A stretch of DNA of 64,000 bases from positions 39,797-103,796 of the forward strand of contig CAYHUB010000001.1 of NCBI GenBank assembly GCA_964359755.1, given 5' to 3'. The notes under the pieces are model-generated. The model did not search any database. It saw nothing but the letters and a program-made list of their open reading frames with translations, and was not told the origin of the DNA. The stretch's first letter is position 1. Each line of letters opens with the position of its first letter. This document shows, piece by piece, positions 4,453-42,763 of this stretch. This stretch comes from an uncultured Candidatus Saccharibacteria bacterium. Its GTDB lineage: Bacteria; Patescibacteriota; Minisyncoccia; GWC2-36-17; WO2-46-25. The position numbers were made by a program, and so were the translations under genes.

Positions 4453-5472
4453 ATGATACGAGTTGCGATCAATGGGTTTGGGAGAATAGGGCGCATGTTT
4501 TTTCGGGTCGGATTTCCCCGGGAAGAGTTGGAGATCGTTGCAATAAACGATCTGGGCGATATTGAAAATCTTGCGTATTTGCTAAGGCATGATTCGGTAT
4601 ACCGCGATTGGGGGCATGATGTGTCGGTGCACGAAGGGAAGCTGGTCGTGGACGGCAAAAGTATCGCATTTATTCAAGAAAAAGACCCGACAAAACTCCC
4701 ATGGAAAGATCTTGAAATTGATGTTGTGGTGGAATCAACCGGCCTTTTTGAAACATTTGAGAAGGCGAAGGTGCATGTGGTCTCAGGAGCAAAGCGCGTG
4801 GTTATTTCCGCGCCGGCAAAAGACGATGAATGCGACGATGCAAAAACGGTCCTGATGGGTATGAATGAAGATGAACTTGAAAACATCAGCGTCAGTTCAA
4901 ATGGTTCGTGTACGACCAATTCCGTGCACCCCGCTATACAGGTGCTGAACGAAACGATCGGCGTGAAGAAGGCGATGCTTACGACGGTGCACGCGTATAC
5001 GGCAACGCAAAAGCTGGTGGACGGCCCCGATAAAGGCGATTGGCGCAGAGGACGCGCTGCGGCACAGAACATTTCGCCCTCAACTACGGGAGCCGCGATC
5101 GCGGTGACGCGCGTCGTGAAGGAATTGCAGGGAAAATTCGACGGTATTGCGGTGCGGGTGCCGGTGATATCCGGCTCGCTTTCAACCGTTGTGTTTCTTG
5201 CGGCTCGTCCGACCAGTATTGAAGAAGTGAACGAAGCGCTCACAAAAGCGGAACAAACCGCGCGCTGGAAAGGCGTATTTAAAACCACAACCGATCCGCT
5301 CGTATCCTCCGATATCATCGGCATACCGTATGCCTCGCTTGTCGATTGTTCGCTTACGAAGGTCATTGATGGCGATCTGGTAAGCATCGGCGCGTGGTAT
5401 GATAATGAAATGGGGTACACGCATATGCTGGTTGAGCATGTGATCAAATCGGGAGCATACGCGAAGAAATAA
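4453..5472 (+). CDS. gap: glyceraldehyde-3-phosphate dehydrogenase, type I
   Basis: INGFGRIGR NAD-binding motif. SNGSCTTNS active-site block with the catalytic Cys. TTVHAYTATQK and AAQNISPSTTGAA blocks. Confidence 0.92.
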   Translation: MIRVAINGFGRIGRMFFRVGFPREELEIVAINDLGDIENLAYLLRHDSVYRDWGHDVSVHEGKLVVDGKSIAFIQEKDPTKLPWKDLEIDVVVESTGLFETFEKAKVHVVSGAKRVVISAPAKDDECDDAKTVLMGMNEDELENISVSSNGSCTTNSVHPAIQVLNETIGVKKAMLTTVHAYTATQKLVDGPDKGDWRRGRAAAQNISPSTTGAAIAVTRVVKELQGKFDGIAVRVPVISGSLSTVVFLAARPTSIEEVNEALTKAEQTARWKGVFKTTTDPLVSSDIIGIPYASLVDCSLTKVIDGDLVSIGAWYDNEMGYTHMLVEHVIKSGAYAKK

Positions 5473-5487
5473 TCAAAGAATAAAAAT

Positions 5488-5766
5488 ATGTTCGACAGCT
5501 ACCACTACTACATCTTTATTCTTCTATTGCTGTTTTGTATTTTACTGCTCGTGTTTAACAGTTTTGTGGTGCACCATTATTTTATTGACATCATTTCTGG
5601 CATCCTGCCATTTATTCCGATAGCCGGGTTTTTGTATCATCTGCGTTTTCAGGACGGAACGGTGATTCCGTTTTATGTGCTGTTTTGCGCTTTGCTTGCG
5701 GCGTATGTTGTCGTGTTTGCCGGTATGAAGATATATGCGATATTTAATCCTTCAGAAGGAATATGA
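5488..5766 (+). CDS. small hydrophobic membrane protein (about 3 TM helices), function unknown
   Basis: 92 aa, highly hydrophobic. 4-bp ATGA overlap with rpiB suggests translational coupling. Confidence 0.45.
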   Translation: MFDSYHYYIFILLLLFCILLLVFNSFVVHHYFIDIISGILPFIPIAGFLYHLRFQDGTVIPFYVLFCALLAAYVVVFAGMKIYAIFNPSEGI

Positions 5767-6233
5767 TCATTTATCTTGGCGCCGACCACGCGGGATTCGC
5801 GCTGAAGCAAAAAACGAAAGAATTTTTGGAAAGCGAAGGGTATGAGGTCGCGGATATGGGCGCGTATGCAAACAACGATGGCGACGACTACCCTGAGTTT
5901 ATTGCGGCGGCGGCACAAGCGGTCGCCAACGACCTTATTAAAGGCGTTGATTCGCGCGGGATCATTTTCGGCGGGTCGGGGCAAGGCGAGGCAATGGCGG
6001 CAAATCGCATTCACGGCATTCGCGCGGCGGTATTTTACGGCCCCTCGACTTCGCTCAGGACAGGCGGCCCGCTTGAAATAATAAAACTTTCACGAGAGCA
6101 TAATGACGCAAATATGCTTTCGATCGGTGCGCGGTTTGTTTCCGAGCAGGAAGCGCTTGATGCGGTGAAGCTGTGGCTCGACACCCCGTTTTCCAACGAA
6201 GAACGGCACAGAAGAAGGATAATGAAGTTCTAA
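5763..6233 (+). CDS. rpiB: ribose-5-phosphate isomerase B
   Basis: N-terminus MIIYLGADHAGFALKQK matches the RpiB/LacAB signature. Size is 156 aa. Confidence 0.88.
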   Translation: MIIYLGADHAGFALKQKTKEFLESEGYEVADMGAYANNDGDDYPEFIAAAAQAVANDLIKGVDSRGIIFGGSGQGEAMAANRIHGIRAAVFYGPSTSLRTGGPLEIIKLSREHNDANMLSIGARFVSEQEALDAVKLWLDTPFSNEERHRRRIMKF

Positions 6234-6245
6234 GCGTGGTATGTC

Positions 6246-6368
6246 CAGCCATCACTCCTCAATTCTTTCTTTTATCTTAATCCGCCAGCTGGCGGACAGC
6301 CTTTCGATAACTATTATATAAATAAAAAGCGTGAGAGGATTAAAGAAGGAATTGAGGGGTGATGGCTG
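6246..6368. repeat. 123-bp element bounded by 20-bp terminal inverted repeats (19/20 match), with an internal perfect 14-bp palindrome ccgccagctggcgg
   Basis: 6246-6265 cagccatcactcctcaattc versus the reverse complement of 6349-6368, cagccatcacccctcaattc. Internal palindrome at 6282-6295. Sits in the rpiB-rpe intergenic region. Confidence 0.6.
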
Positions 6369-6396
6369 AAAAAGTATATTTCGTAATCCAAAATAA

Positions 6397-7053
6397 ATGA
6401 TAGAAATTGTTCCGGCGATCATTGCACGCGATAGCGAAGAAGTGAAGCAGAAGCTTGCGCTTATTGAGGGCGCGGTTGAGTGGGCGCAGATCGATGTAAT
6501 GGACGGCGTGTTCACGCCGCCGGTGACCTTCAATGACCCAGCTGCGTTGCGCGATATTACGACCACAGTACGTCTCGAAGCGCACTTGATGGTGGCGCAT
6601 CCGGAGAATGTTATTGATGCATGGATCAATTCGCCTGTTGCGCGTATTTTACTTCACTACGAATCAACAACGCCTGAAAAATTGGCGGAGCTTGCCGCAA
6701 AGGTCAGTGCCGCCGGCAAAGAGGTTGGTATTGCGCTTAAACTGGAAACCCCGATCTCTGTCTTAGACCCTTTGTTTCAAATTTCAAGCTTCACGTTTCA
6801 GGTAGTACAGCTGATGGGCATCGCCGAGATCGGGTATCATGGGCATCCATTTGATGAGCGCGTGCTCGACAAAATCCATGCGTTGCACGAGCACTATCCT
6901 AATGTTATAATAGCGGTTGACGGTGGTGTAAGTTTGGAAAACGCCGGTACAATTTTAGAGGCGGGCGCTCCTTGTTTGGTTGTCGGAAGCGCAATTTTTA
7001 AAAGCGATAACGCGAAAGAAACGATTAAGAAATTTCAATCTGCAGTTCTATAA
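6397..7053 (+). CDS. rpe: ribulose-phosphate 3-epimerase
   Basis: QIDVMDGVFTPPVTF, AHLMVAHPE and C-terminal DGGV...LVVGSAIF blocks typical of Rpe. Confidence 0.85.
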   Translation: MIEIVPAIIARDSEEVKQKLALIEGAVEWAQIDVMDGVFTPPVTFNDPAALRDITTTVRLEAHLMVAHPENVIDAWINSPVARILLHYESTTPEKLAELAAKVSAAGKEVGIALKLETPISVLDPLFQISSFTFQVVQLMGIAEIGYHGHPFDERVLDKIHALHEHYPNVIIAVDGGVSLENAGTILEAGAPCLVVGSAIFKSDNAKETIKKFQSAVL

Positions 7054-7071
7054 GCTAACGAAGTTAAACAT

Positions 7072-7968
7072 ATGACCACACTGCACGAAGAAAAAATAAA
7101 ACTACTCGAGGAAAAAGCAAATCTCATCAGGCAGAGCATCATTGAGATGCTTATTGAGGCAAAAAGCGGGCATTCCGCGGGGCCGCTTGGCATGGCGGAT
7201 GTATTCGCGCTTTTTTATTTCCACATCCTTAAACACGATCCGAAAAACCCGACATGGCCGGAACGGGACAGATTGATCCTGTCGAACGGGCATATTTGTC
7301 CGGTGTTGTATGCAACAATGGCGCACGCGGGTTATTTCCCTGTGGAGGAGTTGAAAACATTGCGAAAACTTCATTCGCGTTTACAAGGGCATCCGCACCG
7401 CGAATGGCTGCCGATGGTGGAAACGAGTTCCGGCCCGCTCGGCTCGGGGCTTTCGCAAGCGGTAGGCATGGCGCTTGCCGACAGGATGGACAACGGAAAG
7501 ACATCAGGGAAATTCTTTTATTGCTTCATGGGAGACGGCGAGCTTGATTGCGGGCAGGTGTGGGAAGCGACGATGCTCGCGGGCAAAGAAAAATTGCACA
7601 ATATCATCGGCGTTATTGACCGCAACAACATCCAGATTGACGGGTTTACCGAAGACATTATGCCGCTTGAACCGCTGAAAGAAAAATTCGAATCGTTCGG
7701 CTGGCATGTGCTTGAAGTGGACGGGCATAATTTTGAAGCGCTCTCCGACGCGGTAGGCCAAGCGCAGGCGGTTTTTGAAAAGCCGTCGATGATCATTGCG
7801 CATACGATCCCGGGGAAAGGAGTTGAATTCATGGAGCGTCGGTTTGAGTGGCACGGCGTACCGCCGGGCCAAGGACCGGAAGACAAAGTGAAGAAAGCCG
7901 AGCAGGGTCTTGAGGCGCTGAACGAGTTACGTACGCTCTGCGGCAAAATTAAATCTGAACATGAATAA
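7072..7968 (+). CDS. transketolase, N-terminal (TPP-binding) subunit
   Basis: GHSAGPLGMADV and GDGELDCGQVWEA motifs. The gene ends where the C-terminal subunit gene starts. Confidence 0.88.
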   Translation: MTTLHEEKIKLLEEKANLIRQSIIEMLIEAKSGHSAGPLGMADVFALFYFHILKHDPKNPTWPERDRLILSNGHICPVLYATMAHAGYFPVEELKTLRKLHSRLQGHPHREWLPMVETSSGPLGSGLSQAVGMALADRMDNGKTSGKFFYCFMGDGELDCGQVWEATMLAGKEKLHNIIGVIDRNNIQIDGFTEDIMPLEPLKEKFESFGWHVLEVDGHNFEALSDAVGQAQAVFEKPSMIIAHTIPGKGVEFMERRFEWHGVPPGQGPEDKVKKAEQGLEALNELRTLCGKIKSEHE

Positions 7969-8950
7969 TATGGACACACTCAATCCGAAATTGTTCGATA
8001 AAGACGTAGAACAGCTTCCTATCCGCAAAGGATACGGCGACGGCTTGTTGCAGGCGGGGAAGGAAGATGAGCGGATTGTGGCGCTGTGCGCCGACCTGAC
8101 CGGCTCGACGATGACGAGCGTGTTTTCCAAAGAATTTCCGAAACGATTCGTGCAAATGGGCATCGGCGAACAATCAATGGCATCGGTCGCTTCCGGCATG
8201 GCGGCGATGGGGAAAATTCCGTTTCTCGCTTCGTATGCGATGTTTTCGCCCGGGCGCAACTGGGAACAGATTCGTACCACGATCTGCTACAATGATTCTA
8301 ATGTGAAAATTGCGGGCGCGCATGCGGGCGTTTCCGTGGGGCCTGACGGCGGCACGCATCAGGCGGTTGAGGATATTGCGATCACGCGGGTCATCCCGCG
8401 CATGACGGTTATTGTGCCATGCGACGCCATTGAAGCGAAAAAGGCGACGCTTGCGGCGGCAAAAATGACAGGCCCGGTGTATATACGGCTTGCGCGCGAA
8501 GCAACGCCGGTCATCACTACGGAAGCAACACCGTTTGCCATCGGGAAAGCACAGCTATTTTTCACGCCGAAGGAAAAAGCGCAGGTTGGCATTATCGCGG
8601 TCGGCGCGCTTGTCTATAATGCTATTATTGCGGCGCGTGAGCTCGAAGCGGAAGGAGTATATGCAACAGTAATGAATCTCGGCACCGTGAAGCCGATCGA
8701 TAAAGAGGCGGTTGTTGCGCTTGCAAAAGAAGCGGGTGCATTAGTGACGGTAGAAGAACACCAAGTTGCGTGCGGCGTCGGGTCTGCGGTCGCGGAAGTT
8801 CTTGTACAGCATCGTCCAGTGCCGATTGAATTTGTCGGCGTGCGGGATACGTTCGGTCAATCGGGAGAGCCCAATGAGCTTATTGAGCATTACGGCATGG
8901 GGGTGAGTCATATTAAGGACGCGGTGAAGAGAGTAATAGGAAGGAAGTAA
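7961..8950 (+). CDS. transketolase, C-terminal (pyrimidine-binding plus C-terminal domain) subunit
   Basis: MGIGEQSMASVASGMA and HAGVSVGPDGGTHQAVEDIA blocks. 8-bp overlap with the N-terminal subunit gene. Confidence 0.88.
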   Translation: MNNMDTLNPKLFDKDVEQLPIRKGYGDGLLQAGKEDERIVALCADLTGSTMTSVFSKEFPKRFVQMGIGEQSMASVASGMAAMGKIPFLASYAMFSPGRNWEQIRTTICYNDSNVKIAGAHAGVSVGPDGGTHQAVEDIAITRVIPRMTVIVPCDAIEAKKATLAAAKMTGPVYIRLAREATPVITTEATPFAIGKAQLFFTPKEKAQVGIIAVGALVYNAIIAARELEAEGVYATVMNLGTVKPIDKEAVVALAKEAGALVTVEEHQVACGVGSAVAEVLVQHRPVPIEFVGVRDTFGQSGEPNELIEHYGMGVSHIKDAVKRVIGRK

Positions 8951-8953
8951 TTT

Positions 8954-9958
8954 ATGTACGACGTTATCACTATGGGCGCGGCGACGCGGGATGTTTTTTT
9001 GTTGAGCGATCATTTTCGCGTGGCAAAAGACAAACATCTTTCGGCAGTCGGGGAGGTGCTCTATTTTAATCTGGGGTCAAAAAATGAATTGCAAGAAGTC
9101 ATTCTGACCACGGGCGGCGGCGCGACAAACGCGGCGGTAACATTTGCACGGCAAGGGTTAAGGACGGCGTGCATCTGCAGAGTCGGCGATGAGGAGAGCG
9201 GCCATGATGTGGTGCGTGCGCTTAAAAATGAAGGGATTACAACGGAATTCATCCAGCACGATAAAAAATCACCAACAGCGTACTCGACCATTCTCACGAC
9301 CAAAAAAGGGGAGCGGGTCATTTTAACGAAGCGCGGAGCATCTGATCATATCGACGCGCGCGCGATTCCCGTGAAACGCGTGCAGGCGAAATGGCTTTAT
9401 GTTTCTTCGGTCGCGGGCGATCTCGCATTGCTGAAAAAGGTTTTTGCCGTTGCGCACGCGCATGGCATACGCATTGCGATCAACCCCGGGATCCGTGAAT
9501 TGGAAAAAGGATTGCGTGCGCTTGAACCGCTCTTGCGCAGCGTGGACGTGCTGTTTGTGAATCATGAAGAGGCGGCGCAACTCACCGGTATTTCGCAGCG
9601 GAAAGAAAAAACTATTTTTGAAAAACTTGATGCGATTGTGCGCGGCATCGTGGTAATGACAAAAGGGCAAAAAGGCGTGGTGGTGTCCGACGGTAAAAAA
9701 GTATATCATGCGGGTGTTCCTAAGGCACCCATCGCGGGAAGGACGGGGGCGGGAGATGCGTTCGGTTCGGGTTTTATTGCCGGGCTTGCGCGGGGAAACA
9801 ATATTCCGTTCTCGATGCAATTAGGCACCGCAAATGCCACAGCGGTCATTCAGCATCTTTCTGCAAAGCAGGGTATTTTGCGAAAGGGTGAGTGGGGGAA
9901 ATGGCCGCGCGTAACCGTACAAGAAATTTCACTGAAAAATCATGGATACATCAATTGA
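8954..9958 (+). CDS. PfkB-family carbohydrate/sugar-phosphate kinase (ribokinase-like); possibly the 6-phosphofructokinase equivalent
   Basis: GGGATNAAVTFARQG and GAGDAFGSGFIAGL (PfkB signature 2). Sits inside the gap/rpi/rpe/tkt/fba cluster. Confidence 0.8.
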   Translation: MYDVITMGAATRDVFLLSDHFRVAKDKHLSAVGEVLYFNLGSKNELQEVILTTGGGATNAAVTFARQGLRTACICRVGDEESGHDVVRALKNEGITTEFIQHDKKSPTAYSTILTTKKGERVILTKRGASDHIDARAIPVKRVQAKWLYVSSVAGDLALLKKVFAVAHAHGIRIAINPGIRELEKGLRALEPLLRSVDVLFVNHEEAAQLTGISQRKEKTIFEKLDAIVRGIVVMTKGQKGVVVSDGKKVYHAGVPKAPIAGRTGAGDAFGSGFIAGLARGNNIPFSMQLGTANATAVIQHLSAKQGILRKGEWGKWPRVTVQEISLKNHGYIN

Positions 9959-11195
9959 AAGGATCGCGCGCGTATTGCGCACCGACAAGGATACGGTGGG
10001 AAATTTATGCAAGCGGATGGAAGAGGTGACAGGAAAAAGAAATGTCCCGCAAAAAGTGATGGAAGAGAACGATCTGCTTGTGGAGAAGTCTCTTACTGCG
10101 CTTGGCGTTGGGGGAAAAGCGTTTAATTTTGAGGTGTATCAGGCGCTTATCGCAAAAGTGAAGAAAAATGACGCGACCATTTTTGAGCTTTTTCGCAAGC
10201 CGCGATGTATTGACTATAAAGGGTGTAAGACGCTGTTAAACTTTGCCGAAGAGCTTGCAAATGTCGGCGAAGGATTTTTTCTTAAAAAAGAAAAAGCGAC
10301 AGAGTTGTTGAAGAACGAACCACCGGTGAATATCATGAAGGCGCTCGGGTACAAGGAGGTGAACGAGCTGATCGAGAAAGAAGACATTGATCAGGTATTT
10401 GCTGCGCTGCGGTTCGGGGAAGAACGGCAATGGCTGAATGAAGTGTTTTTCGCGCAATATAAAAATCTTACGGTCAATGATTTTGAGCGCAGAGGCATAC
10501 GGCTTGAAGTGCTTGACGGGAAATGGCTTACGATCGCGGAGCAATTCCTGAAAAAGAAATATCATAATGTGTCCCATCTCAAAGAATTGGGAGTGATATT
10601 TGTGATCCCGCTCGAGTTAAAAACACCCGGCGAAACGATGCGCGTGTTCGGGCTTATTCTGCATTATTTGCACGAGGTAAACTTTTACGCAAAATTGTTT
10701 ACGCTGTATGCGCAAACGCCTTCCAATTTCGCCGAGCGTGTTATTTCGTGTTTGCGCGGCGATGTGCTTGATGAGCAGATGCACAGCCATGTGGTATCCA
10801 ATTGGCTTATTGTACAGCGGTATCTTGCCAAAGAGGATGAATATGACTGGCGGTTATTCGCGCCGCATGTGAACCCGGAAGCGCTTCACTGGACGAAAGC
10901 GGAGGAAGATGTTGCGCGGCTCAATGAGCGGTTTGAGAATCTTGATCTGCATTTCTGGCACAATCTTGATTTTGTGGGAGAATTTTACCGCACGGAATCC
11001 GGCGTCGATAATCTCGTGAGCTTTAATCTGATCGACACCGTGATGTCGTTGGTCATGGAAAAGGATATGATCAAATATCTGTATCATCATCAGGAAGCGA
11101 TGTGGAACAAGCTATTTATGGAATACGTGGGCGGGCGCGATGAAATGGAGCGGCTTACCGTTGAAAACTTCATGAAAGGGTACATCGCGTTTTAA
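9942..11195 (+). CDS. hypothetical protein (417 aa) embedded in the sugar-phosphate operon; no recognisable motif
   Basis: Long ORF, overlapping the upstream kinase gene by 17 bp and ending 5 bp before fba. Soluble, no TM helices. Confidence 0.6.
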   Translation: MDTSIERIARVLRTDKDTVGNLCKRMEEVTGKRNVPQKVMEENDLLVEKSLTALGVGGKAFNFEVYQALIAKVKKNDATIFELFRKPRCIDYKGCKTLLNFAEELANVGEGFFLKKEKATELLKNEPPVNIMKALGYKEVNELIEKEDIDQVFAALRFGEERQWLNEVFFAQYKNLTVNDFERRGIRLEVLDGKWLTIAEQFLKKKYHNVSHLKELGVIFVIPLELKTPGETMRVFGLILHYLHEVNFYAKLFTLYAQTPSNFAERVISCLRGDVLDEQMHSHVVSNWLIVQRYLAKEDEYDWRLFAPHVNPEALHWTKAEEDVARLNERFENLDLHFWHNLDFVGEFYRTESGVDNLVSFNLIDTVMSLVMEKDMIKYLYHHQEAMWNKLFMEYVGGRDEMERLTVENFMKGYIAF

Positions 11196-11200
11196 TTGGC

Positions 11201-12091
11201 ATGAATTGTAATACGAAACAATTTTTCAGTGCTGCGGAGAACGGGAAATATGCGATCGGGCAGTTCAATGTGTCTACAGCAGATCAAATACGGGCAATTA
11301 TGAGGGTTGCGAAGGATCTCCGCTCACCGGTCATTATTGGCACGTCGGAAGGCGAGTGTGCATTTATTGGCGCGAGACAGGCGGTGAAGCTGTGCGAAGC
11401 ATACGAAGAAGAAGTGGGTGTCCCGGTCATTCTGAATGCCGATCATACCTATAAGGATGTGAAAGAGATAAAAAATCTTGATACGATACAAGCATTGCTT
11501 GATGCGGGGTATAATTCTATTCACTTTGACGGTTCCGTGCTGTCGTTTGAAGAAAATGTTGAGTGGACAAAGCAGGTGGTCGCAATGTGCAAAGAGAAGA
11601 ACCCGGGAATATCCGTGGAGGGTGAGCTCGGTTTTTTGCCCGGGGCATCGCAGATTTCTCAAGAAAAAGTGGAAATAAAGCCGGAGTATCTGACCGATCC
11701 GAAACAGGCGCTCGCATTTGTGGAAGCGACCGGCATCGATCGGCTCGCGGTGTCGGTCGGCAATAGCCACGGCATTTCATTTCAGGAGGATCGGCTTGAT
11801 ATTGAGCGCATCGCGGCGATCAAAGAGATGATCGGTGACCGCGCGGTGCTCGTGTTGCATGGCGGATCGGGAATCCCGGATGATCAGATACAAGCGGCGA
11901 TTGAGCACGGCATTCGAAAGATTAACATCAATACCGAACTTCGCGTCGCATTTCATGACGCGCTCAAAGCAACGCTTACAGGATCGGAACAAACAACCCC
12001 GTACAAGTTTTTGCCGCCGGCAATGGATGCGGTTGCGCGCGTGGTAGAGGGGAAAATAAAACTTTTTGGAAGCGGCAATGCTGCTAAGTGA
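11201..12091 (+). CDS. fba: class II fructose-/tagatose-bisphosphate aldolase
   Basis: N-terminal FSAAENGKYAIGQFNV, metal-binding H in LNADHT, and VLHGGSGIPDDQI blocks of the class II aldolase family. Confidence 0.85.
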   Translation: MNCNTKQFFSAAENGKYAIGQFNVSTADQIRAIMRVAKDLRSPVIIGTSEGECAFIGARQAVKLCEAYEEEVGVPVILNADHTYKDVKEIKNLDTIQALLDAGYNSIHFDGSVLSFEENVEWTKQVVAMCKEKNPGISVEGELGFLPGASQISQEKVEIKPEYLTDPKQALAFVEATGIDRLAVSVGNSHGISFQEDRLDIERIAAIKEMIGDRAVLVLHGGSGIPDDQIQAAIEHGIRKININTELRVAFHDALKATLTGSEQTTPYKFLPPAMDAVARVVEGKIKLFGSGNAAK

Positions 12092-17815: not shown

Positions 17816-19480
17816 TTAATACGGCACGGAGAATACCGCGTGCGGAGTGAGTATATATATTTCTTTGCGGTCGGAAGAGACCGTGAAATCAACAATGTCT
17901 CTCAGCGTTCCTAAAAGATATTTTTCCACCATCTCGTTTTTTTGTTTCGGCATTTTGATTATTTTATTTCCTCCTTCCACTTTATAATCGGCATCGTTAT
18001 AGATACGGGTATTTTGGGATGAACTGACTGCAAGCGTCTTTTGGAGCGTTTTTATCACGTTCGTAAGCGATTTATCCGTAAGAGAAAAGAGAAGTGCTGA
18101 TCGCTTCGTATCATTGAGCATGTATACTTCGCCATTTTGCATGAACATTCTTTCGATCTCAAAATCGGTAGGTGCTTGAGTGAGAAATGTGTACGACCCC
18201 TCATGTGTTTGTTTTGATAGTGTATAGAATATGGATGGCTCGTTTCCGAAAATATAAATAAAATCATTATCGTCGAAGATAAAATGCGGCTGAAAGCGGA
18301 TAGAAGAGGTTGGTATCTTTCCTCGGTATACCGGTTGCACAATGTGAATGCCTGTCAAGAGATTTATTTTCACTTCTATTTCATACGCAATTTTTTGCGC
18401 GAGAGAGCCGAAAAGAAAAGAAGGAATCATGCGCAGGGCGTTATCCCGGGCTTCATGAAGCAGTGCGAAAGCAGCGTATTTGTCGTCTGCTTTATCTGCG
18501 GAGGTTATTTTCCTTTGTATGCCGTCCATAAATGCGATTTGTGTTTTGAGGAATGCGTAGCTACTGCCTCCAACGATAAAAATAAGCGCACTGGCAAGAA
18601 AGATCAATAAGTTTCTTTTATGAAGCGGGGCTTTGGAGTATATAGTTATTTTTTTACGAAAATCTCTGAATGAGAGCGTACGTAGCATGGCAAACACACG
18701 TAACATGCGTTTCATAAATGTGCCAATGCCGGTGAAACGTCCTTGCGCGCTGACAGCAACGCTCATCTTTGTCCCTGATTTTTTGCCGAACGGAAGCCAT
18801 GTTGTTTTTGCGCTTGCGATTGTAAGAAGGATAAGCGCTTGCGCGGGAAGCGGGATCTCCCGCGCATTTTTTTGGTATATCTTGCCAATGATATCCGCCT
18901 GCTCGTCGAGCGAAAGCGCAAACAGCTTCTCAATGCCTTTTTCAGAAAAAAGATCAATGGTCTTTTCAGTGCTAAAAATAAATTTGTCATCAAGGGCGAC
19001 ATTGCCGGTGATCACTGCGGAAAAAAGTTCACGCGTACTTTTGTGCTTATACTTCTTCGCCATATCAACGACTTCGTTTTCGCGGTACAGAAAGGTAATA
19101 ATATTTCCGAATTTTGAAAGGCGGATCGCTTCGCCCGCAATATTTATCACGCAGAAATGCGCGTCCTCAAGCACGCCTTCGTTTGCCTTCCCGATGTCAT
19201 GGAGCGTTGCATTCGCTTTTTTAAGCGCGTTCTCAAAGTGAAGCTCCGCATTCGCATCATCGAGTTTATAAAATTCACGCTTAATAACCGATGCGACGAG
19301 ATTCGGCAGAAATTCAAATTCGCTCTTCCGATTTTCGAGCCGGCCTATGATATAGAGATTTCCAAGGCGTTCCTCCTCAATGTTTGACGGTTCATAGACG
19401 AATGTTTCGGTGCCGCCGCCCTCTTTTCCCTGTTTGAGGATGAGTTCCTTTGTGCCGATCGTAAAATGAGTTGATTCCAT
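17816..19480 (-). CDS. hypothetical membrane protein (554 aa; N-terminal soluble domain, central TM helix, C-terminal domain)
   Basis: Long ORF with a TM segment LLIFLASALIFIVGGSSYAFL. No confident family match. Confidence 0.55.
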   Translation of the reverse strand: MESTHFTIGTKELILKQGKEGGGTETFVYEPSNIEEERLGNLYIIGRLENRKSEFEFLPNLVASVIKREFYKLDDANAELHFENALKKANATLHDIGKANEGVLEDAHFCVINIAGEAIRLSKFGNIITFLYRENEVVDMAKKYKHKSTRELFSAVITGNVALDDKFIFSTEKTIDLFSEKGIEKLFALSLDEQADIIGKIYQKNAREIPLPAQALILLTIASAKTTWLPFGKKSGTKMSVAVSAQGRFTGIGTFMKRMLRVFAMLRTLSFRDFRKKITIYSKAPLHKRNLLIFLASALIFIVGGSSYAFLKTQIAFMDGIQRKITSADKADDKYAAFALLHEARDNALRMIPSFLFGSLAQKIAYEIEVKINLLTGIHIVQPVYRGKIPTSSIRFQPHFIFDDNDFIYIFGNEPSIFYTLSKQTHEGSYTFLTQAPTDFEIERMFMQNGEVYMLNDTKRSALLFSLTDKSLTNVIKTLQKTLAVSSSQNTRIYNDADYKVEGGNKIIKMPKQKNEMVEKYLLGTLRDIVDFTVSSDRKEIYILTPHAVFSVPY

Positions 19481-25897: not shown

Positions 25898-27718
25898 ATG
25901 AGTTGGTTTCCTATTGCGATCATCGCGCAAATAATCCTTGGAACATCTGCGGTATTCGATAAGATGCTCCTGAAACGAAGTATTTTTAACCCCGCCGCCT
26001 ATACATTTTGGCTGGGCGTGCTTGGGTTGTTTGCGGTTTTTTTGATTCCCTTCGGGGTGTTCGGGTTGCCGGTAATGACTATTGGTGTCGCGCTTATTGC
26101 GGGCGCGCTGTTTCTGCTTGCGATGCTGTTTCTGTTTCTTTCACTGCATAAAACCGAAGCCTCAAAATCTCTTTTACTTATCGGGGGCATTACGCCGATC
26201 ACCACGCTTCTTGTCGGGTCATTTTTTCAGGATGGCTCGCTCGCGCCAGCGGATATTGTCGGTTTCGTGTTTCTGGTGCTTGGCGGGTTCGCGCTTTTTT
26301 TATCGGATAAAAAAGAGATACGGGGGAATGTTGCATTACTTGCATGCGCAAGCGCGGTATGCTTCGGGCTTTCTAATACGCTTACCAAACAGGTGTTTTT
26401 GGAGAGCTCGTTTACGGCGGGGTTTTTTTGGGTGAAGATCGGCGGGGTTTTATTCGTGCTATCGTTTCTTTTGCTTCCCTCTTTGCGCCGTTCCATATTT
26501 TCCGCGGTTCACCGCGATAACACCCACCATCACGCATTGTATGTTTTTAACAGGGGATACGCCGCCGCGGGGTCGGTGCTTATCAATGCTGCGATATTTT
26601 TAGCGCACCCCGCCTTGGTGGAGGCGACGCAGAGCATTAAATATGCGGTTATTTTTATAGCGTCATGGTTTCTTCTCGGTGAGCATTTCAAGGGAAAAGT
26701 GCTTGTAGGAAAGCTTGCTGCAATTACGCTCATCGGCGGCGGGTTTATATGGCTTGCAGGCGCGGATATCGCGCGCAACATCCCCGTTGACCCCGAGCGG
26801 CCTATTATATGGGGGGCAACGTTTTCTCAAAAATTCAGCCGTGAACTCGGGCTTGATTGGAAAGAGAATTTCACTGCGTTCATGGACGAGCTGAAGCCGC
26901 GCGCAGTACGGCTGGTTGCGTATTGGGATGATATTGAAAAGGATCACGGCACGCTTGATTTTTCGGAAACCGACTGGATGTTTGAAAAAGCGGCGCAAAC
27001 AGATGTGCGCGTGGTGTTTGCGGTCGGCATGAAGGCTCCGCGATGGCCGGAATGTCACATCCCGCAGTGGGCGAAAACGCTTGATACCGAAAAGCGCGAG
27101 GAAGCGTTGCTCGCGTATATGGGAAAGGTTGTTGACCGGTATCACGCAAATAACACGATTGCGATGTGGCAGGTGGAAAATGAGCCGTATTTGGCGTTTG
27201 GCGACTGTCCTGAACGCGGTGTGCGATTTCTGGAGAATGAAGTGGCGCTGGTAAAGTCGCTCGACACAGAGCATCGTATTATAACTACCGACGGAGGGGA
27301 ATTTGGGTTATGGTATAAAGCGGCAGAAGAAGGAGATGTGTTTGGCACGACGATGTACCGCAAAGTATATCCAAAAGTCATCGGGCCGAGGTTTGGTGTC
27401 GTGGAGTATCCGCTCGCGCCGAGCTTTTTCCGGTTCAAAGAAAAAGTGGTGCGGCGCATCCTTGGCGACTGGGACAAGCCGTTTATGGTGATTGAACTGC
27501 AGGCGGAGCCGTGGGGGCCAAAACACATTTCACAGCTTACCGACCAGGAACAGGATGAGATATTCAGCCCTGATTATTTCAACGAAACAATTGAATATGC
27601 GAAAGAAACAGGGTTTAATGAATATTATCTTTGGGGATCAGAGTGGTGGTACTGGAAGAAGCTCAAAGGCGACGAGCGGTATTGGGATATTGCTAAGGAA
27701 TTATTTTTGAAACAATGA
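25898..27718 (+). CDS. fusion protein: N-terminal DMT/EamA-like 10-TM domain plus C-terminal clan GH-A (GH5-like) glycoside hydrolase domain
   Basis: About 300 aa of polytopic membrane domain. Then WQVENEPY (acid/base NEP) and TDGGEFG (nucleophile-type) motifs. Confidence 0.65.
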   Translation: MSWFPIAIIAQIILGTSAVFDKMLLKRSIFNPAAYTFWLGVLGLFAVFLIPFGVFGLPVMTIGVALIAGALFLLAMLFLFLSLHKTEASKSLLLIGGITPITTLLVGSFFQDGSLAPADIVGFVFLVLGGFALFLSDKKEIRGNVALLACASAVCFGLSNTLTKQVFLESSFTAGFFWVKIGGVLFVLSFLLLPSLRRSIFSAVHRDNTHHHALYVFNRGYAAAGSVLINAAIFLAHPALVEATQSIKYAVIFIASWFLLGEHFKGKVLVGKLAAITLIGGGFIWLAGADIARNIPVDPERPIIWGATFSQKFSRELGLDWKENFTAFMDELKPRAVRLVAYWDDIEKDHGTLDFSETDWMFEKAAQTDVRVVFAVGMKAPRWPECHIPQWAKTLDTEKREEALLAYMGKVVDRYHANNTIAMWQVENEPYLAFGDCPERGVRFLENEVALVKSLDTEHRIITTDGGEFGLWYKAAEEGDVFGTTMYRKVYPKVIGPRFGVVEYPLAPSFFRFKEKVVRRILGDWDKPFMVIELQAEPWGPKHISQLTDQEQDEIFSPDYFNETIEYAKETGFNEYYLWGSEWWYWKKLKGDERYWDIAKELFLKQ

Positions 27719-28743: not shown

Positions 28744-29367
28744 ATGAAGATTTTTATTGATTTTGATGGAGTGATATTTGATGCAAAAAAGTTTAAAAAC
28801 GCGCTCGCGCGCATCTGTGCAAAGAATGGTATGGTAAGAAAAGATTTTTTTCATATCTATGCGCTCGCGAAGGAGAACGGAGAAGTGTATTCGGTTTCGC
28901 ATCATCTTCGCTTGTTGGCAAGGCATGCGAAGAACCGTATACAAAAGAAAACATTGCGCATAGCGATTGATCGCCTCATGAGCGATCTTCGCTCGTATGT
29001 TTTTAAGGACGTATTTCGTTTTTTCGATCGGATGCATAAGCACGATCTTTATTGTGTATCGTTCGGGGATCCCGCGTTTCAGAGGCGAAAGATCGAGGGA
29101 AGCGGCGTAAAGCGATATTTTAAACGCGTTATTGTGACGCGCGGTGATAAAGGAAAAGAGATCGCTGCATTATGCAAAAAGAACAGTACATCTGATGAAC
29201 AGATCGTTTTTGTTGATGACAGTGAAAAGCATATTCGCGAAGTTCGAAGCATTAAAAATGCTGTGATCATTCATTTGTGTAGAGGTAAAAACGTCCCGAG
29301 ATCTCCGAATGCGGATTATCGCGTATCTACACTTGCACAGGCAACTCGTGTTATTCTGTCTTTATGA
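28744..29367 (+). CDS. HAD-superfamily hydrolase-like protein
   Basis: N-terminal FIDFDGVIFD (DxD motif I) and later VFVDDS (motif IV-like). Confidence 0.55.
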   Translation: MKIFIDFDGVIFDAKKFKNALARICAKNGMVRKDFFHIYALAKENGEVYSVSHHLRLLARHAKNRIQKKTLRIAIDRLMSDLRSYVFKDVFRFFDRMHKHDLYCVSFGDPAFQRRKIEGSGVKRYFKRVIVTRGDKGKEIAALCKKNSTSDEQIVFVDDSEKHIREVRSIKNAVIIHLCRGKNVPRSPNADYRVSTLAQATRVILSL

Positions 29368-30740
29368 ACCGGTCTATTTTCAAGGCATACGATGTGCGGG
29401 GGTTATATCCTCACGAGTTTGATGAGGTTGCGGCATATCGCATCGCACGAGCAACGGCGAAGTTTTTGACCCGTTCGACAAGCTCAGGGTCAACCCTGAA
29501 CAAAGTTGAAGGGTTGAGCGCGAAAACAATGCTTATCGCGATGGATAATCGCGATTCATCGTCGTCGCTCAAGGAGGCGGTTATCAGGGGACTCACAGAA
29601 GAGGGCGTGGAAATAATTGATGCTGGTGTCGCCACGACGCCGATGTTTTATTTTGCCGCGTATGATTCTCAGGCAGACGGGGGTATTATGGTGACCGCAT
29701 CGCATAATCCGCCGCAGTATAATGGCCTGAAAATTGTTGGGAAAACCGCGATGCCGATAGGGGAGGCGTCGGGCCTTCCCGCGATACAAGAGATCGCGTG
29801 CGCGGAAGAAACGAAAGCGCAAAAAGCAGATACGGCACCAAACGTGCAAAGCGTTGATTTTCTCGCAAAATACGTTGATTTTCTTACGAACAATGTGCGC
29901 ATGCCAAAGATGCTCATTGCGGTTGACGCCGCATGCGGACCTGCGGGCACGATAGTTTCTGCGGTCGCAGAACGCCTAAAAATAGAGATCATCCCGCTTT
30001 GCTTTGCTCCGTGTGCGGTACGGGCGCATGGCGCCGACCCGTTAAAGGATGAAAATACGCGCGATCTTGCAGAAGCGGTCGTGGCGCAGAATGCGGATAT
30101 GGGTATTGCGCTTGATGGCGATGGCGACAGGGCGTTTTTCTTTGACAACGAAGGAAAACGGGTGCCGTCGCACGCCATCGCTTCGGTCATCGCAAAAGAC
30201 CTTCTTGAGCGTGATGGTGCTAGTATGGTTATTACGGATGTGCGAATGCCAAAAATTCTCCACGAAACCGTCGCGCAAAGCGGCGGCATAATAATGGAGA
30301 GCAGGGTAGGGCATGCGTTTATCAAGAAACTCATGCGCGAGCACAATGCGCTGTTTGGCGCGGAACTTTCCGGGCATTTTTATTTCCGCGATTTTTGGGG
30401 GATGGACTCGGGCATCATGATGATGATGCGCGTGCTTGCGGTGCTTGAAAAAACAGGAAAGTCGATCAAGGAACTTACCCAGCCCTATTGCGTGCGCGCA
30501 CAATCTGGGGAATTGAATTTCACCGTTGCCGATAAGGCATCGGCGATAGCAAAGCTGAAAGCGGCATTTACGGACGGCAAGCAGGAGGAACTCGACGGGC
30601 TGACAATTATGTATCCGACATGGTGGTGCAATGTGCGTCCGTCAAACACCGAGCCGTTCCTGCGCGTGAACATAGAGGCGGATACGCAGGAAGCATTAGA
30701 TGTCGCACGAAGAAAAATAGAATTAATTATCACGCAATAA
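29364..30740 (+). CDS. phosphoglucomutase/phosphomannomutase-family enzyme (PMM/PGM or GlmM-like)
   Basis: TASHNPPQYNGLK phosphoserine loop and metal-binding DGDGDR. Confidence 0.85.
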   Translation: MNRSIFKAYDVRGLYPHEFDEVAAYRIARATAKFLTRSTSSGSTLNKVEGLSAKTMLIAMDNRDSSSSLKEAVIRGLTEEGVEIIDAGVATTPMFYFAAYDSQADGGIMVTASHNPPQYNGLKIVGKTAMPIGEASGLPAIQEIACAEETKAQKADTAPNVQSVDFLAKYVDFLTNNVRMPKMLIAVDAACGPAGTIVSAVAERLKIEIIPLCFAPCAVRAHGADPLKDENTRDLAEAVVAQNADMGIALDGDGDRAFFFDNEGKRVPSHAIASVIAKDLLERDGASMVITDVRMPKILHETVAQSGGIIMESRVGHAFIKKLMREHNALFGAELSGHFYFRDFWGMDSGIMMMMRVLAVLEKTGKSIKELTQPYCVRAQSGELNFTVADKASAIAKLKAAFTDGKQEELDGLTIMYPTWWCNVRPSNTEPFLRVNIEADTQEALDVARRKIELIITQ

Positions 30741-40738: not shown

Positions 40739-42763
40739 TTACCACAAAAATACTTCCAATTTCACTTCAGCATCATACGTATCGCTACTTTCAGCTCCGG
40801 AATATGCTTCGGTTATTTTTGATCCTATAAATATCAATTTCCATTTCGGGCCGCCTCGATAACCAACCTCCGCGCTGATCTTTTCAGACGAGGGAATAAA
40901 TCTTTCGTATTCTGATGTTGCTTTTTCATAGCCCAATTCACCCTTCCATTTCTCGCTGGCAACGCCACCTTTAATTTTAATTTTTTTACCCCAATCAAGC
41001 TCGCTCCCCGCCGCTTCTAAATTTAAAACTTGCACCTCATTGACCTTTACTCCTGTTCCAACGGTGAATGTTTTTGCCACCTCTTTTATTATTGGATCCT
41101 GGTTCTGGAAATCATTTTTTTGTTCGCGAAACATTTCCTGTGCACCGATATAAAATTTCCCGGTTTCGGAAGGATTGATATATATCAACCTCATTCCCGC
41201 CCCAGCTTCACTCATGTTACTCATAGTTCCAATTCCTATTTCTTCATCAAGCGGCAAACTCAAAGCTCCCTGAAAAGTCGCGCCAAAATTCAATATAAAT
41301 TTCCCGTAATCTTCTTTGGTAAATGCATGACTGTCTATGTAATCTGCCGCCAAGCGGGTGATAATTTCATCTTGCGCAACATTGCCTCCATATAAATCTT
41401 TTATGTTCATATGCACTACGGTCGCATCTGCCTCAAATCCAAGCCTCTCGCTTTTTACATTCAATCTCCCCCGTAAGGCGTTCAAATCTTCTAATGATTG
41501 ATATGGATTATTGTTAAAATCCTGAAAATTAAAATATGCCACGGCAAAAGTATCTTTGTTTAATTTGATTTCTTTGACTTCCGGGCTTACGTTGATCTCA
41601 AGTCCTCTTTCTTTTTTAAGCTCACCGCTTGAAAGTTCTCCTTCCAGTCTTTCCGCTGTTTCTTCAATTCCCGCCGCTTTTTCAACTACCTCCTGCGCGC
41701 GACTTTTCACTGGAAATAGCACTTCTTTTTCATTACTAACGAAGGAATGAAATGTCGCTACTGACCTATGGTATCGCTCTGCAACACCAAGAGCCTCCGG
41801 ATATTTCTCTGTGTCAGTTAGTATTAAGGTCCCATAATCACTAAAACCTATTTTCCTTTTCCCGTTAATATCCAGAGCAAATCCAGACCAAACATGTCCG
41901 CCCTGCTCGGTAGAGCCGTTTTGTAGCCATGCTTCCAATCCAAGACTTTTGGCTATTTTTGTCAAAAAAGTATGAATATTGCCGCAGATGCCAGTTCTGG
42001 TGATTTTTCCTGTCATTAATAACTCTCTGAGCGCAGAAAACATTGCGTCATCAGAAATTTCGATATGTTGATTTTTCTCAAGCATATCGAAGTTATAGGT
42101 TCGTCCAAGTGCATTCCCTATATATTGTAAAACTAGGGTTTTTTGATCATCGCTTAATTTATTCTTTTCACCGGATAATGCAGTAAAAAACTCCTTGGAA
42201 TTATTTGATTGAAATATAGAATTCAATTCCGTATCTATCGCACTGTCAAATTCTTGGTGTGAAAGATCTTTATAAAAATCAGAGCCGATCATGGTATTGT
42301 AACCATTAGCCTGTATTGCTTCCGGCCTTCCTTTTGGTATTTTCTCAAATTCACCACTAACAGAGATCTCTATCTTGTCGGCGAACTTCTCCCAATCAAA
42401 CGGCGCAAACTCGTCTTTTTTGTCGGAAGCGATCATTTTTTCAAATAACTCCTGCGGGGATAGCTTTTCTATTGTTGTTTCTTCTATCTGGTTTTCCGGA
42501 GACAATTTCCCCTTGTTTATTTCCTCCTTCTTAAGTCCCTCGGCAAAAGTAGATGCTGCGCTCGTAACTATCGAAAGCGCCGCGAGGCAAGCGACGGCCT
42601 CCTTTTTAAATTTCTCCGGCACTAATTTCATTAAAAAACCCTCGGTTTCTTTTTGGATGACCGATTCCTTTTCGTTAAAATCTTCAAAGATCGCCTCTTT
42701 TTCTTCCGGCGAAGTCTCTTCTTCGAGATATTCCTTTTCGAGTTCGAAATTATTTTCAGACAT
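40739..42763 (-). CDS. large envelope protein with a transglutaminase-like Cys-His-Asp core (DUF3857/TGase/DUF3858-like architecture), in an AT-rich island
   Basis: Acidic N-terminus then TM helix ([19 protein letters not shown]). TGase-like core G-I-C-G-N...GGHVWSGF...D. Beta-rich C-terminus ending in F-L-W. Local GC about 38-42%, against about 52% in the flanks. Confidence 0.6.

Follow-up and report, generated by a model that had tools for sequence, protein, structure and literature searches.

Gene X lies in a 64,000-nucleotide stretch of DNA from an uncultured Candidatus Saccharibacteria bacterium (the window) and is embedded there in a run of central-carbon genes with the local order gap-rpiB-rpe-tktN-tktC-pfkB-X-fba. 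The genes and the conserved features of the encoded protein X are listed below; the neighbours were assigned with Pfam, and residue numbers refer to X.

4453-5472, + strand: gap
5763-6233, + strand: rpiB
6397-7053, + strand: rpe
7072-7968 and 7961-8950, + strand: tktN and tktC, a split transketolase
8954-9958, + strand: PfkB/ribokinase-family kinase (Pfam PfkB, 5e-43)
9942-11195, + strand: gene X, ATG start, 417 aa, TAA stop, soluble protein
9942-10271, + strand: N-terminal all-helical region of X (about residues 1-110), its least conserved part
10410-10433, + strand: R157-F-x-E160-x-x-x-W164 motif, on helices before the beta-sheet
10479-10493, + strand: D180-F-E182-x-R184 (DFExR), first beta-strand, the signature with the broadest conservation in the family
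10563-10586, + strand: H208-N-x-S/T-H212-x-K214-E215 (HNxSHLKE), beta-hairpin
10662-10688, + strand: H241-Y242-x-x-E245-x-x-x-Y249, invariant, on the long helix 231-256 after the beta-sheet
10863-10892, + strand: P308-H309-x-N-P-E313-x-x-H316-W317, conserved motif
11034-11036, + strand: D365, conserved without exception in the members examined (100% in each of the three clades)
11082-11096, + strand: Y381-H382-H-Q-E385 motif, C-terminal helix
11201-12091, + strand: class II fructose/ketose-bisphosphate aldolase, fba (Pfam F_bP_aldolase, 1e-80)

The start of gene X overlaps the end of the upstream PfkB reading frame by 17 nt, and a 5-nt spacer (TTGGC) separates its stop codon from the start of fba. 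The reading frame of 417 aa and both junctions had been described in a first-pass annotation of this DNA and were all recovered on the sequence. By this arrangement, X is translationally coupled to PfkB. Promoter- and terminator-like sites inside pfkB-X-fba occurred at chance level only, and the junctions are too tight for them. Both observations are consistent with the co-transcription that had been claimed earlier. The absence of a transmembrane segment was likewise borne out by a highest 19-residue Kyte-Doolittle mean of 1.19 and by a globular AF2 model.

The genes from gap to tktC (4453-8950) would together encode a route from pentose phosphates to triose phosphates. The aldolase matched TIGR00167 with 248 bits, which is over the cut-off of this model. 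The kinase stayed under every NCBIfam equivalog cut-off, the best match being ribokinase with 121 bits against a cut-off of 300 bits. Its closest relatives in the PDB are YdjH, fructokinase, ribokinases and adenosine kinase, and an assignment of its substrate by homology was rejected since it is equidistant from these. A scan of 41 window ORFs found no Pfam domain of transaldolase, PGI, TPI or an FBPase class.

A search for homologues of X gave 2,636 clusters (E<1e-3) with full-length coverage and identities down to 50%. A deeper set comprised 558 clusters (50% identity clustering) with identities down to about 25%, and 527 species-level genomes with X were recovered with the HNxSHLKE search pattern. 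Because it is carried this widely, gene X is a real gene and not a chance ORF. The family is restricted to Patescibacteria (CPR) and previously undescribed, with gene X as its founding member; neither a description nor a Tn-seq phenotype was found in the literature. A Pfam scan of X and 39 diverse members gave no match at E<=1 that was common to the members, NCBIfam and PADLOC searches with X gave none, and PDB sequences compared with X as single sequence and as profile yielded nothing usable. This agrees with the earlier remark that X contains no recognisable motif. With PADLOC, neither X nor its Saccharimonadales orthologue matched a defence system; the sole match was PsyrA with 24 bits, within the SLOG part of an X::LOG fusion. 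Two giant 'fusions' of about 1,800 aa (P0224 and P0269) contain unrelated domains and were excluded as probable gene-calling artefacts.

About 20 His, Asp, Glu, Arg, Lys and Trp residues of X are invariant and are the same in standalone and LOG-fused architectures. The charged set consists of six His, eight Asp/Glu and four Arg/Lys, which are 100% conserved across clades of only about 30% identity. E160 and W164 are conserved to at least 96% in all three clades, and R157 to 100% in the Paceibacteria-type and LOG-fused clades. In a deep alignment of 39 sequences, D180 and F181 are invariant while E182 and R184 reach at least 90%; D180, E182 and R184 are conserved to at least 96% in all three clades. 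The HNxSHLKE hairpin is invariant in 57 Paceibacteria-type sequences and 100% conserved in 120 LOG-fused sequences. P308, H309 and E313 reach at least 88% in all clades, H316 and W317 100% in the fused and 97% in the Paceibacteria-type clade, and H382 and E385 100% in both of these. The window protein carries every motif of the family, namely R-F-x-E...W, D-F-E-x-R, H-N-x-S/T-H-x-K-E-x-G, H-Y-x-x-E-x-x-x-Y, P-H-x-x-P-E-x-x-H-W, D365 and Y-H-x-x-E, within a domain of about 410 aa.

In 61 of 76 species-level loci the gene immediately before X is pfkB, and in 45 of 73 the one immediately after it encodes an aldolase. X does not adjoin PfkB in about 20% of the loci, yet adjoins an aldolase there. 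A class I DeoC/LacD-family aldolase occupies the fba position in two loci (L002 and L023) and, by ORF size and order only, probably also in a third (L037). The pfkB-X order was also found in Saccharimonadia, where X is 25-32% identical, and the order gap-rpiB-rpe-tktN-tktC recurs in loci of Paceibacteria and Saccharimonadia. X is syntenic with PfkB and aldolase across two CPR classes. The first-pass annotation had argued from guilt by association and had named lost synteny as a point against its reading; with pfkB-X conserved across two classes, the argument is stronger than was supposed. It had overlooked that the steady partner of X is the ribokinase-family kinase itself, the specificity of which is putative. 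Two loci (L089 and L090) contain X with PfkB or SLOG and no tkt or other PPP gene nearby, and a gene of the Inositol_P family (IMPase/FBPase-type) and PGI are located next to some X clusters (L083, L092 and L089). MFS neighbours in L089 and L067 were considered as a clue to nucleoside transport; this was rejected, as they look like drug-efflux transporters.

In Saccharimonadia, a LOG/SLOG nucleotide 5'-monophosphate phosphoribohydrolase either comes next after X or forms a stable fusion with it. Full-length X::LOG fusions were found in at least 120 independent clusters, and a frameshift artefact was rejected on this ground. The PF03641 and PF18306 domains and the GGGxGxM and PGGxGTxxE motifs are confined to the part of the fusions C-terminal to X; X itself matches neither profile and does not belong to LOG/SLOG. 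Rigid packing of X and LOG was not supported by the monomer model of the fusion (pTM 0.55), which has a disordered linker between the two parts. In Paceibacteria, X is standalone with no LOG nearby. A gene of about 200 aa that follows X::LOG was considered as a second SLOG protein, and no similarity was found. The fusions resemble PpnN (YgdH) and other multi-domain LOG nucleosidases in that a LOG domain (PGGxGTxxE) is joined to a large accessory domain, here X, and the product ribose 5-phosphate matches the neighbouring RpiB, Rpe and Tkt genes. However, X shows no sequence relationship to the domains that flank LOG in PpnN, comprises about 410 aa, is N-terminal and stands alone in Paceibacteria. 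X::LOG gave only a 22-bit, zero-stretch match to the PpnN model, located inside LOG. The fusions are presently labelled 'TIGR00730 family Rossman fold protein', and the X family merits its own name and profile model, the fused form being mislabelled.

The AF2 model of X is globular with a pLDDT of 90.5 and a pTM of 0.92. Structural neighbours were limited to zincin peptidases and zincin-like DUFs, and the modelled core would remotely resemble the zincin metallohydrolase fold. Both this likeness and the link to nucleotide catabolism through LOG/SLOG had escaped the earlier reading. That reading had called for a Foldseek comparison; against PDB and BFVD it gave no match below E = 0.5. A match to an unrelated housekeeping family, which that reading had named as a point against it, was not found. 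By topology, without residue-level superposition, helix 231-256 would take the position of the HExxH helix of zincins. HExxH itself is present in just 6 of 288 members at scattered positions and is replaced by the invariant H241-Y242-x-x-E245, with Tyr at the position of the catalytic Glu and Glu at that of the second His. In the alignment, helix 260-272, which would correspond to the third-ligand helix of zincins, has no family-wide acidic residue, D274 being kept in some clades only. The comparison covered thermolysin (M4), M1 aminopeptidases, ACE (M2), M32 carboxypeptidase, lugdulysin (M30), MATCAP, the DUF885 proteins 3u24, 3iuk and 3o0y, and 3cmn. Apart from the replaced HExxH, X differs from these in its lack of similarity by sequence or profile and in an additional N-terminal helical region, and a third-ligand helix motif is not evident in it. 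A small ANTAR-like three-helix resemblance was also observed and may stem from the N-terminal region.

The zincin neighbours are the one argument for a divergent zincin-type metallopeptidase of housekeeping proteolysis that merely hitch-hikes in the operon. This is very improbable given the altered HExxH, and none of 39 members matched a peptidase or zincin-like Pfam family. Kinase synteny across classes and fusion to LOG are unexpected for a general peptidase, and the genomic context is one of kinase, aldolase and LOG rather than proteolysis. It is scarcely to be expected that X acts as an ANTAR-like RNA-binding antiterminator or regulator of the operon with its large domain as ligand sensor: matches of three helices over 45 residues carry little weight, the ANTAR Pfam profile did not match the X family, no known RNA element was found in the operon and a LOG fusion would be unexpected for an antiterminator.

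We infer that X is catalytic and metal-binding, with a phosphorylated ribose or nucleotide compound as substrate. It is tentatively proposed, as a plausible reading that falls short of probable, that X is a metal-dependent enzyme and not a peptidase, acting as a unit with the upstream ribokinase-family kinase. In Saccharimonadia, it would also pair with the LOG/SLOG phosphoribohydrolase. It would take part in the steps that turn ribose of scavenged nucleotides or nucleosides into ribose 5-phosphate, or hand the latter on, and ribose 5-phosphate would then enter the co-encoded RpiB-Rpe-Tkt-(PfkB)-aldolase-GAPDH route. Candidate activities are a phosphoesterase or pyrophosphatase yielding a substrate for kinase or LOG, an N-ribohydrolase feeding a ribokinase, and a ribose-phosphate mutase or isomerase. 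Two-gene modules of a PfkB kinase and a ribose-releasing enzyme are PsuK-PsuG, ribokinase with nucleoside hydrolases, and YegV-YegU. The pair described here is similar in that its ribokinase-family kinase is closely linked with another protein that looks metal-dependent, and in that the output of the pair would plausibly feed ribose 5-phosphate into the PPP. It differs in that X has no relation in sequence or fold to PsuG (Indigoidine_A), IU-nucleoside hydrolases or ADP-ribosylglycohydrolases, with no Pfam matches to them.

The first-pass annotation had suggested that X replaces a non-homologous transaldolase, a sedoheptulose or fructose bisphosphatase, or another isomerase-type step of the PPP or upper glycolysis. 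X indeed sits in rpiB-rpe-tkt-pfkB-X-fba, just where tal is 'missing', and the domain scan of 41 window ORFs found no transaldolase, PGI, TPI or FBPase. PFK and hexokinase are nearly always absent from CPR and transaldolase often, and transaldolase, PFK and FBPase are missing from closed CPR genomes (PMC7304191, PMC7143001). The invariant His/Asp/Glu and Arg/Lys residues would also suit a metal-dependent sugar-phosphate enzyme. Nevertheless, such a replacement is improbable. X keeps PfkB or SLOG in L089 and L090 where tkt and PPP genes are lacking, and its fusion partner is a nucleotide hydrolase and not a PPP enzyme. The model is neither a TIM barrel, that is the (beta/alpha)8 barrel of the TAL_FSA family, nor like any FBPase class. 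X has no match to TAL_FSA or FBPase classes I-V in Pfam, nor to FBPase, GlpX, FBPase_3, Inositol_P and FBP aldolase/phosphatase in Pfam and NCBIfam. Inositol_P and PGI genes already stand beside some clusters; a PGI substitute was rejected on account of a PGI gene 1.5 kb from X in L089, and a TPI substitute as TIM is near-universal in CPR (PMC7304191). Moreover, a bisphosphatase encoded alongside the kinase would give a futile cycle.

In cellulolytic clostridia, PFK and aldolase bypass transaldolase via sedoheptulose-1,7-bisphosphate (PMC7029132), and a kinase and an aldolase are thus already able to do without the replacement. The operon has transketolase, a sugar kinase, a class II aldolase and no transaldolase, a gene set that would permit this bypass. 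The clostridial route relies on a PPi-PFK from the PfkA family and does not require an extra protein, whereas here a PfkB-type kinase is accompanied by X. If F6P and S7P are substrates of PfkB, and FBP and SBP those of the aldolase, the conversion of R5P to triose phosphates is fully encoded (PMC7029132). This speaks for X as a non-catalytic or allosteric partner of PfkB, and of LOG in Saccharimonadia, with a regulatory or scaffolding, possibly metabolite-sensing role. Such a partner would control irreversible steps of the ribose-to-triose route, rather as OpcA aids G6PDH or the flanking domains of PpnN govern its LOG core. The translational coupling points to kinase and X being made in stoichiometric amounts, the flexible linker tethers X to LOG, the zincin catalytic motif is degenerate, and several His are dispensable in distant standalone members. 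OpcA is the G6PDH-associated accessory protein of zwf-opcA PPP operons. The analogy is based on its being a lineage-restricted protein without classical enzyme motifs that is encoded in a PPP operon beside the enzyme it serves, but X has no Pfam OpcA match and carries dense invariant residues of catalytic type. Their number and kind are more typical of a catalytic metal or phosphate site than of an interface. PfkB-family kinases are not known to require such a subunit, and in about a fifth of loci X is away from PfkB and still beside an aldolase. A non-catalytic or allosteric partner is rather unlikely. Of the earlier reading, the reasoning from context held and the guess of a transaldolase or SBPase substitute is a rival that is disfavoured by the L089/L090 context, the LOG fusion, the model and the kinase-aldolase bypass; its 'PFK-associated factor or regulator' is a live rival to the metal-dependent enzyme.

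For a decade, gaps have been noted in reconstructed CPR metabolism, both in upper glycolysis and in the non-oxidative PPP, and the entry of carbon into the lower-glycolysis core is the puzzle. In at least two large CPR classes, the core operon holds two proteins of putative role, the PfkB-type kinase and X. Because of its adjacency to the kinase in a pentose/glycolysis operon and its fusion to LOG, X stands out as a strong candidate for a step or point of control, as yet undiscovered, between scavenged ribose and energy in CPR. A vague 'missing step' is thereby turned into a concrete three-protein module (PfkB, X and LOG) with defined residues, and X::LOG occurs in Saccharibacteria including human-associated, cultivable lineages with genetics. 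It is possible, if rather doubtful, that X represents a new class of metal-dependent enzymes on a zincin-derived scaffold which, together with PfkB (and LOG), catalyses a reaction missing from CPR carbon maps. One possibility is a new point of entry at which ribose phosphate from nucleotides is released or converted; another is an activity that allows pentose-to-triose conversion without canonical PFK, transaldolase and hexokinase. If true, two major classes of Patescibacteria would share a core metabolic enzyme that has no counterpart in other life.

The 417-aa reading frame X lies in the window within a cluster of central-carbon genes that are all read on the same strand:

4453-5472 (+): gap (Pfam), upstream of the PfkB gene
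5763-6233 (+): rpiB (Pfam)
6397-7053 (+): rpe (Pfam)
7072-7968 and 7961-8950 (+): split transketolase (Pfam)
8954-9958 (+): PfkB-family kinase (Pfam, 5e-43), with its TGA stop codon 17 nt inside X
9942-11195 (+): X, ATG start, 417 aa, TAA stop
11201-12091 (+): class II ketose-bisphosphate aldolase, fba (Pfam, 1e-80; TIGR00167 above cut-off), after a 5-nt spacer

The extent of X, its 17-nt overlap with pfkB and the 5-nt gap to fba were recovered exactly as in the first-pass annotation, which had also claimed co-transcription of X with its neighbours. Promoter-like and terminator-like matches across the region were as frequent as expected from shuffled sequence and neither fits at the two junctions. 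Since these matches are at chance level and the junctions leave no space, pfkB, X and fba are almost certainly co-transcribed as claimed, with translational coupling at the pfkB/X junction. The gap-rpiB spacer is occupied by a very hydrophobic 92-aa ORF (5488-5766, +); elsewhere this spacer holds unrelated unannotated genes (437 aa in locus L002, 149 aa in locus L085). The rpiB-rpe spacer (6234-6384, +) contains a very stable long hairpin (MFE -65.8 kcal/mol, z = -8.2 against shuffles) with arms of ~28 bp (6249-6269 with 6345-6365, 2 mismatches) and an inner GC stem. It is present in one copy in the window and gave no Rfam family above noise. It may act in mRNA processing or stability or in attenuation, or may be a small repeat that was inserted here.

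A database protein on a 148.7-kb contig has exactly the sequence of the window protein, whose nearest relatives (87-93% identity) were found in Candidatus Azambacteria and other Patescibacteria MAGs. Homologues formed 2,636 clusters (90% identity) at E<1e-3, the best 120 of which were all full length with at least 50% identity. An exhaustive HMMER scan yielded 558 clusters (50% identity), in which identity falls to ~25% while the length stays at ~410 aa, and a relative is present in 527 species-representative genomes. Named sources are nearly always CPR (Azam-, Wolfe-, Jorgensen-, Niyogi-, Brenner-, Taga-, Terry-, Lipton- and Portnoybacteria, Paceibacterota, Saccharimonadales), and in these lineages the homologues are always annotated as "hypothetical". 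A few contigs of 5-24 kb bear non-CPR labels, namely, those of locus L012 (uncultured Gammaproteobacteria) and of the homologues P0107 (Marinimicrobia) and P0317 (Pedobacter sp.). As L012 shows the usual CPR order tktC-pfkB-X-fba, the labels are probably due to mis-binning, not horizontal transfer. Oversized proteins with an X domain, P0224 (1799 aa, methyltransferase/HTH domains) and P0269 (1830 aa, glucan-synthase/cytidylate-kinase-like domains), as well as P0185 (582 aa, with a 175-aa N-terminal extension that lacks a Pfam match), are probably gene-calling fusions.

The first-pass annotation had recognised neither a motif nor a TM segment in X. Consistent with this, X had no match in Pfam or NCBIfam, and the highest 19-residue Kyte-Doolittle mean was 1.19, with no hydrophobic segment. 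No match was obtained in PADLOC, and nothing among PDB sequences with either the single sequence or a 57-sequence profile. For 39 diverse members, Pfam at E<=1 returned 21 one-off matches and no family common to two members; no description of the family was found in the literature. Pfam at E<=1e-6 also assigned no domain to four further large ORFs of the window (554-674 aa; 488-2164, +; 17816-19480, -; 25898-27718, +; 40739-42763, -), which are more unannotated CPR proteins.

AlphaFold2, run with the 57-sequence alignment, gave a confident single-chain model (mean pLDDT 90.5, pTM 0.92). It predicts an N-terminal helical region (~residues 1-110), a short strand and several helices, beta-hairpins at 181-190, 210-221 and 346-360, and a long helix (231-256) followed by further helices. 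A Foldseek search of the entire PDB with this model gave no neighbour (best E = 2.5), nor did one of predicted viral structures, and the alternative of an unrelated housekeeping family, raised in the first-pass annotation, gained no support. X is new at the protein-family level, with no curated family and no significant structural neighbour. HExxH, the defining zincin motif, is missing from X (6 of 288 members carry it, at scattered positions); the long helix instead bears the invariant H241-Y242-x-x-E245-x-x-x-Y249. X therefore falls outside the zincins by their motif and resembles them in fold at best. That X is a bona fide peptidase appears very improbable, and an ANTAR-like RNA regulator even more so.

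Gene neighbourhoods were surveyed in 80 species-level loci. The sequence 5' of X was long enough in 76 of them, and 61 of these have a PfkB homologue directly upstream in the same orientation (median apparent gap 36 nt). Class II Fba lies directly 3' in 45/73 and within 3 kb in 49/73, and transketolase is found at the locus in 43/57. The absence of conserved synteny, which the first-pass annotation had named as a refutation, was thus not observed: the X-aldolase order is kept widely, and the pfkB-X order into the Saccharimonadales branch too. There, the cluster reads gap-rpiB-rpe-tktN-tktC-fba/pfkB-X, with 25-32% identity to the window X and 27-35% to its kinase. In exceptional loci, X is preceded by unrelated genes (SecA, ClpB, NifU), yet an aldolase and a 2-hydroxyacid dehydrogenase follow it. 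In some of these loci the aldolase is class II Fba; in others a class I DeoC/LacD-family protein occupies its place:

L002, 9430-10188: class I DeoC/LacD-family aldolase downstream of X, then 2-hydroxyacid dehydrogenase
L023, 9252-10004: class I DeoC/LacD-family aldolase downstream of X, then 2-hydroxyacid dehydrogenase
L037, 3169-3924: probable class I DeoC/LacD-family aldolase, by ORF size and order only

Through this non-orthologous displacement, an aldolase is still encoded beside X. Locus L090 carries PfkB-X alone (4-nt overlap) amid unrelated genes, and L089 an isolated X-SLOG-PfkB-MFS module distant from pentose-phosphate (PPP) genes. Because both keep PfkB and X together away from PPP genes, the invariant association of X is with the kinase and not with PPP genes as such. 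In Wolfebacteria (L065-L067 and L071, including the complete genome CP011209), X adjoins neither PfkB nor aldolase. The order is tktN, a double-zinc-ribbon protein, X and a PrsW-family protease (both neighbours by scan of L067), and no tktC was detected there. This lineage seems to have lost parts of the cluster but retains X at 49-50% identity.

In every Saccharimonadia-type context sampled, an SLOG-superfamily gene adjoins X. It is of the TIGR00725/LDcluster4 type in L083, L087 and L089 and a true, convergent LOG (TIGR00730 type) in L085/86, while X is fused to LOG in L084, L091 and L092. With the 658-aa fusion as query, 1,994 matches were obtained. The best 120 of these were all full length (643-684 aa, 56-83% identity) with PF18306/PF03641 at the C-terminus and annotated solely as "TIGR00730 family Rossman fold protein"; many lie on Saccharibacteria contigs of 0.3-0.9 Mb, including TM7i and Saccharimonadaceae. 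The LOG motifs are retained (GGGxGxM in 117/120, PGGxGTxxE in 87/120), which together with the full length of these 120 rules out an artefact. The X::LOG fusion is stable and ancient. Its AlphaFold2 monomer model shows two folded domains and a disordered linker of ~45 residues (pTM 0.55), so the domains are predicted to be tethered without rigid packing. No LOG/SLOG homologue was detected anywhere in the 64-kb window, nor up to 8 kb from X at any locus of the Paceibacteria type. LOG-family enzymes hydrolyse nucleoside 5'-monophosphates, which releases the base and ribose 5-phosphate (cf. PMC5379747 and the PpnN literature). RpiB, encoded nearby, acts on ribose 5-phosphate.

In the Saccharimonadia loci L084, L085, L086, L091 and L092, a divergent RelA/SpoT-family (p)ppGpp synthetase/hydrolase gene lies 5' of gap on the minus strand. 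The E. coli LOG-family protein PpnN is regulated by (p)ppGpp, which makes this neighbour of the X::LOG cluster intriguing. The window further encodes a PGM/PMM-family phosphosugar mutase (29364-30740, +), perhaps a GlmM or phosphopentomutase, as well as RNase J (30784-32748, -); both are potentially relevant to nucleotide-ribose salvage, though unlinked to X. A ThyX-like protein (36842-38566, -) of unusual size (574 aa, Thy1 domain at residues 130-306 only) adjoins dCTP deaminase, FolD and SHMT in a thymidylate/folate cluster.

The 57 Paceibacteria-type X sequences share 58 invariant columns, with a high content of His, Glu, Asp, Arg, Lys and Trp. In an alignment of 346 sequences (158 Paceibacteria-type, 68 distant standalone, 120 LOG-fused), E160, W164, D180, E182, R184, E215, G217, P223, E245, Y249, F263, P308, H309, E313, W339 and D365 are the same at >=85% in all three groups. 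The LOG-fused clade has only ~30% identity to the window X. Its further 100% conserved residues (R157, K206, H208, N209, H212, K214, H241, Y242, H316, W317, H382, E385 and W388) are those invariant in the Paceibacteria clade too, and because of this the same chemistry is kept in both architectures. Some distant standalone members lack several of the histidines. The preserved six His, eight carboxylates and four Arg/Lys suggest a putative metal site and an anion (phosphate) site, a set that would be expected of an enzyme sooner than of a passive scaffold. The leading rival reading, that X serves the irreversible steps as a regulatory or scaffolding subunit, is rather unlikely.

The window kinase scored below every NCBIfam equivalog cut-off (ribokinase came nearest, with 121 bits where 300 are required, ahead of ribose-1-phosphate kinase). 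Among PDB proteins, YdjH, fructokinase, ribokinases and adenosine kinase are related to it to about the same degree. It forms its own subfamily with the orthologues of L083-L092. These kinases could supply the phosphofructokinase/S7P kinase that is "missing" in CPR, or could be ribose or nucleoside kinases, and CPR surveys limited to PfkA and ADP-PFK types would have missed them. In ~1,000 CPR genomes, TIM, GAPDH and PGK are near-universal and PFK and hexokinase almost always absent (PMC7304191). Glucokinase, PFK, transaldolase and FBPase are all missing from a closed Microgenomates genome that keeps a tkt-aldolase operon (PMC7143001), and transaldolase can be replaced by a kinase and an aldolase via sedoheptulose 1,7-bisphosphate (PMC7029132). 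If PfkB phosphorylates F6P and S7P, the operon encodes all steps from R5P to 1,3-bisphosphoglycerate bar TIM, and X would thus have no obligatory catalytic slot there. The first-pass proposal, that X takes over a step of sugar-phosphate metabolism in place of, for instance, transaldolase or SBPase, is improbable: against it stand L089 and L090, the X::LOG fusion, a fold that is not a barrel and the Inositol_P and PGI genes adjoining some X clusters.

The Paceibacteria operon lacks a gene for ribose phosphate entry, and in Saccharimonadia the gene supplying it, LOG, is the one fused to X. Together with the enzyme-like conservation, this points, tentatively, to X as a metal-dependent enzyme at the entry of the pathway. 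It would work alongside the kinase, and also LOG in genomes that have it next to X, and its substrate would be a ribose phosphate or a compound derived from a nucleotide or nucleoside. That X represents a new enzyme class filling a missing step of CPR central metabolism is conceivable, if on the doubtful side. X is a well-supported and testable lead with a proposed mechanism. Few genes of the central-carbon operon are conserved as well as X in two major CPR classes, and it is located at long-standing metabolic gaps.
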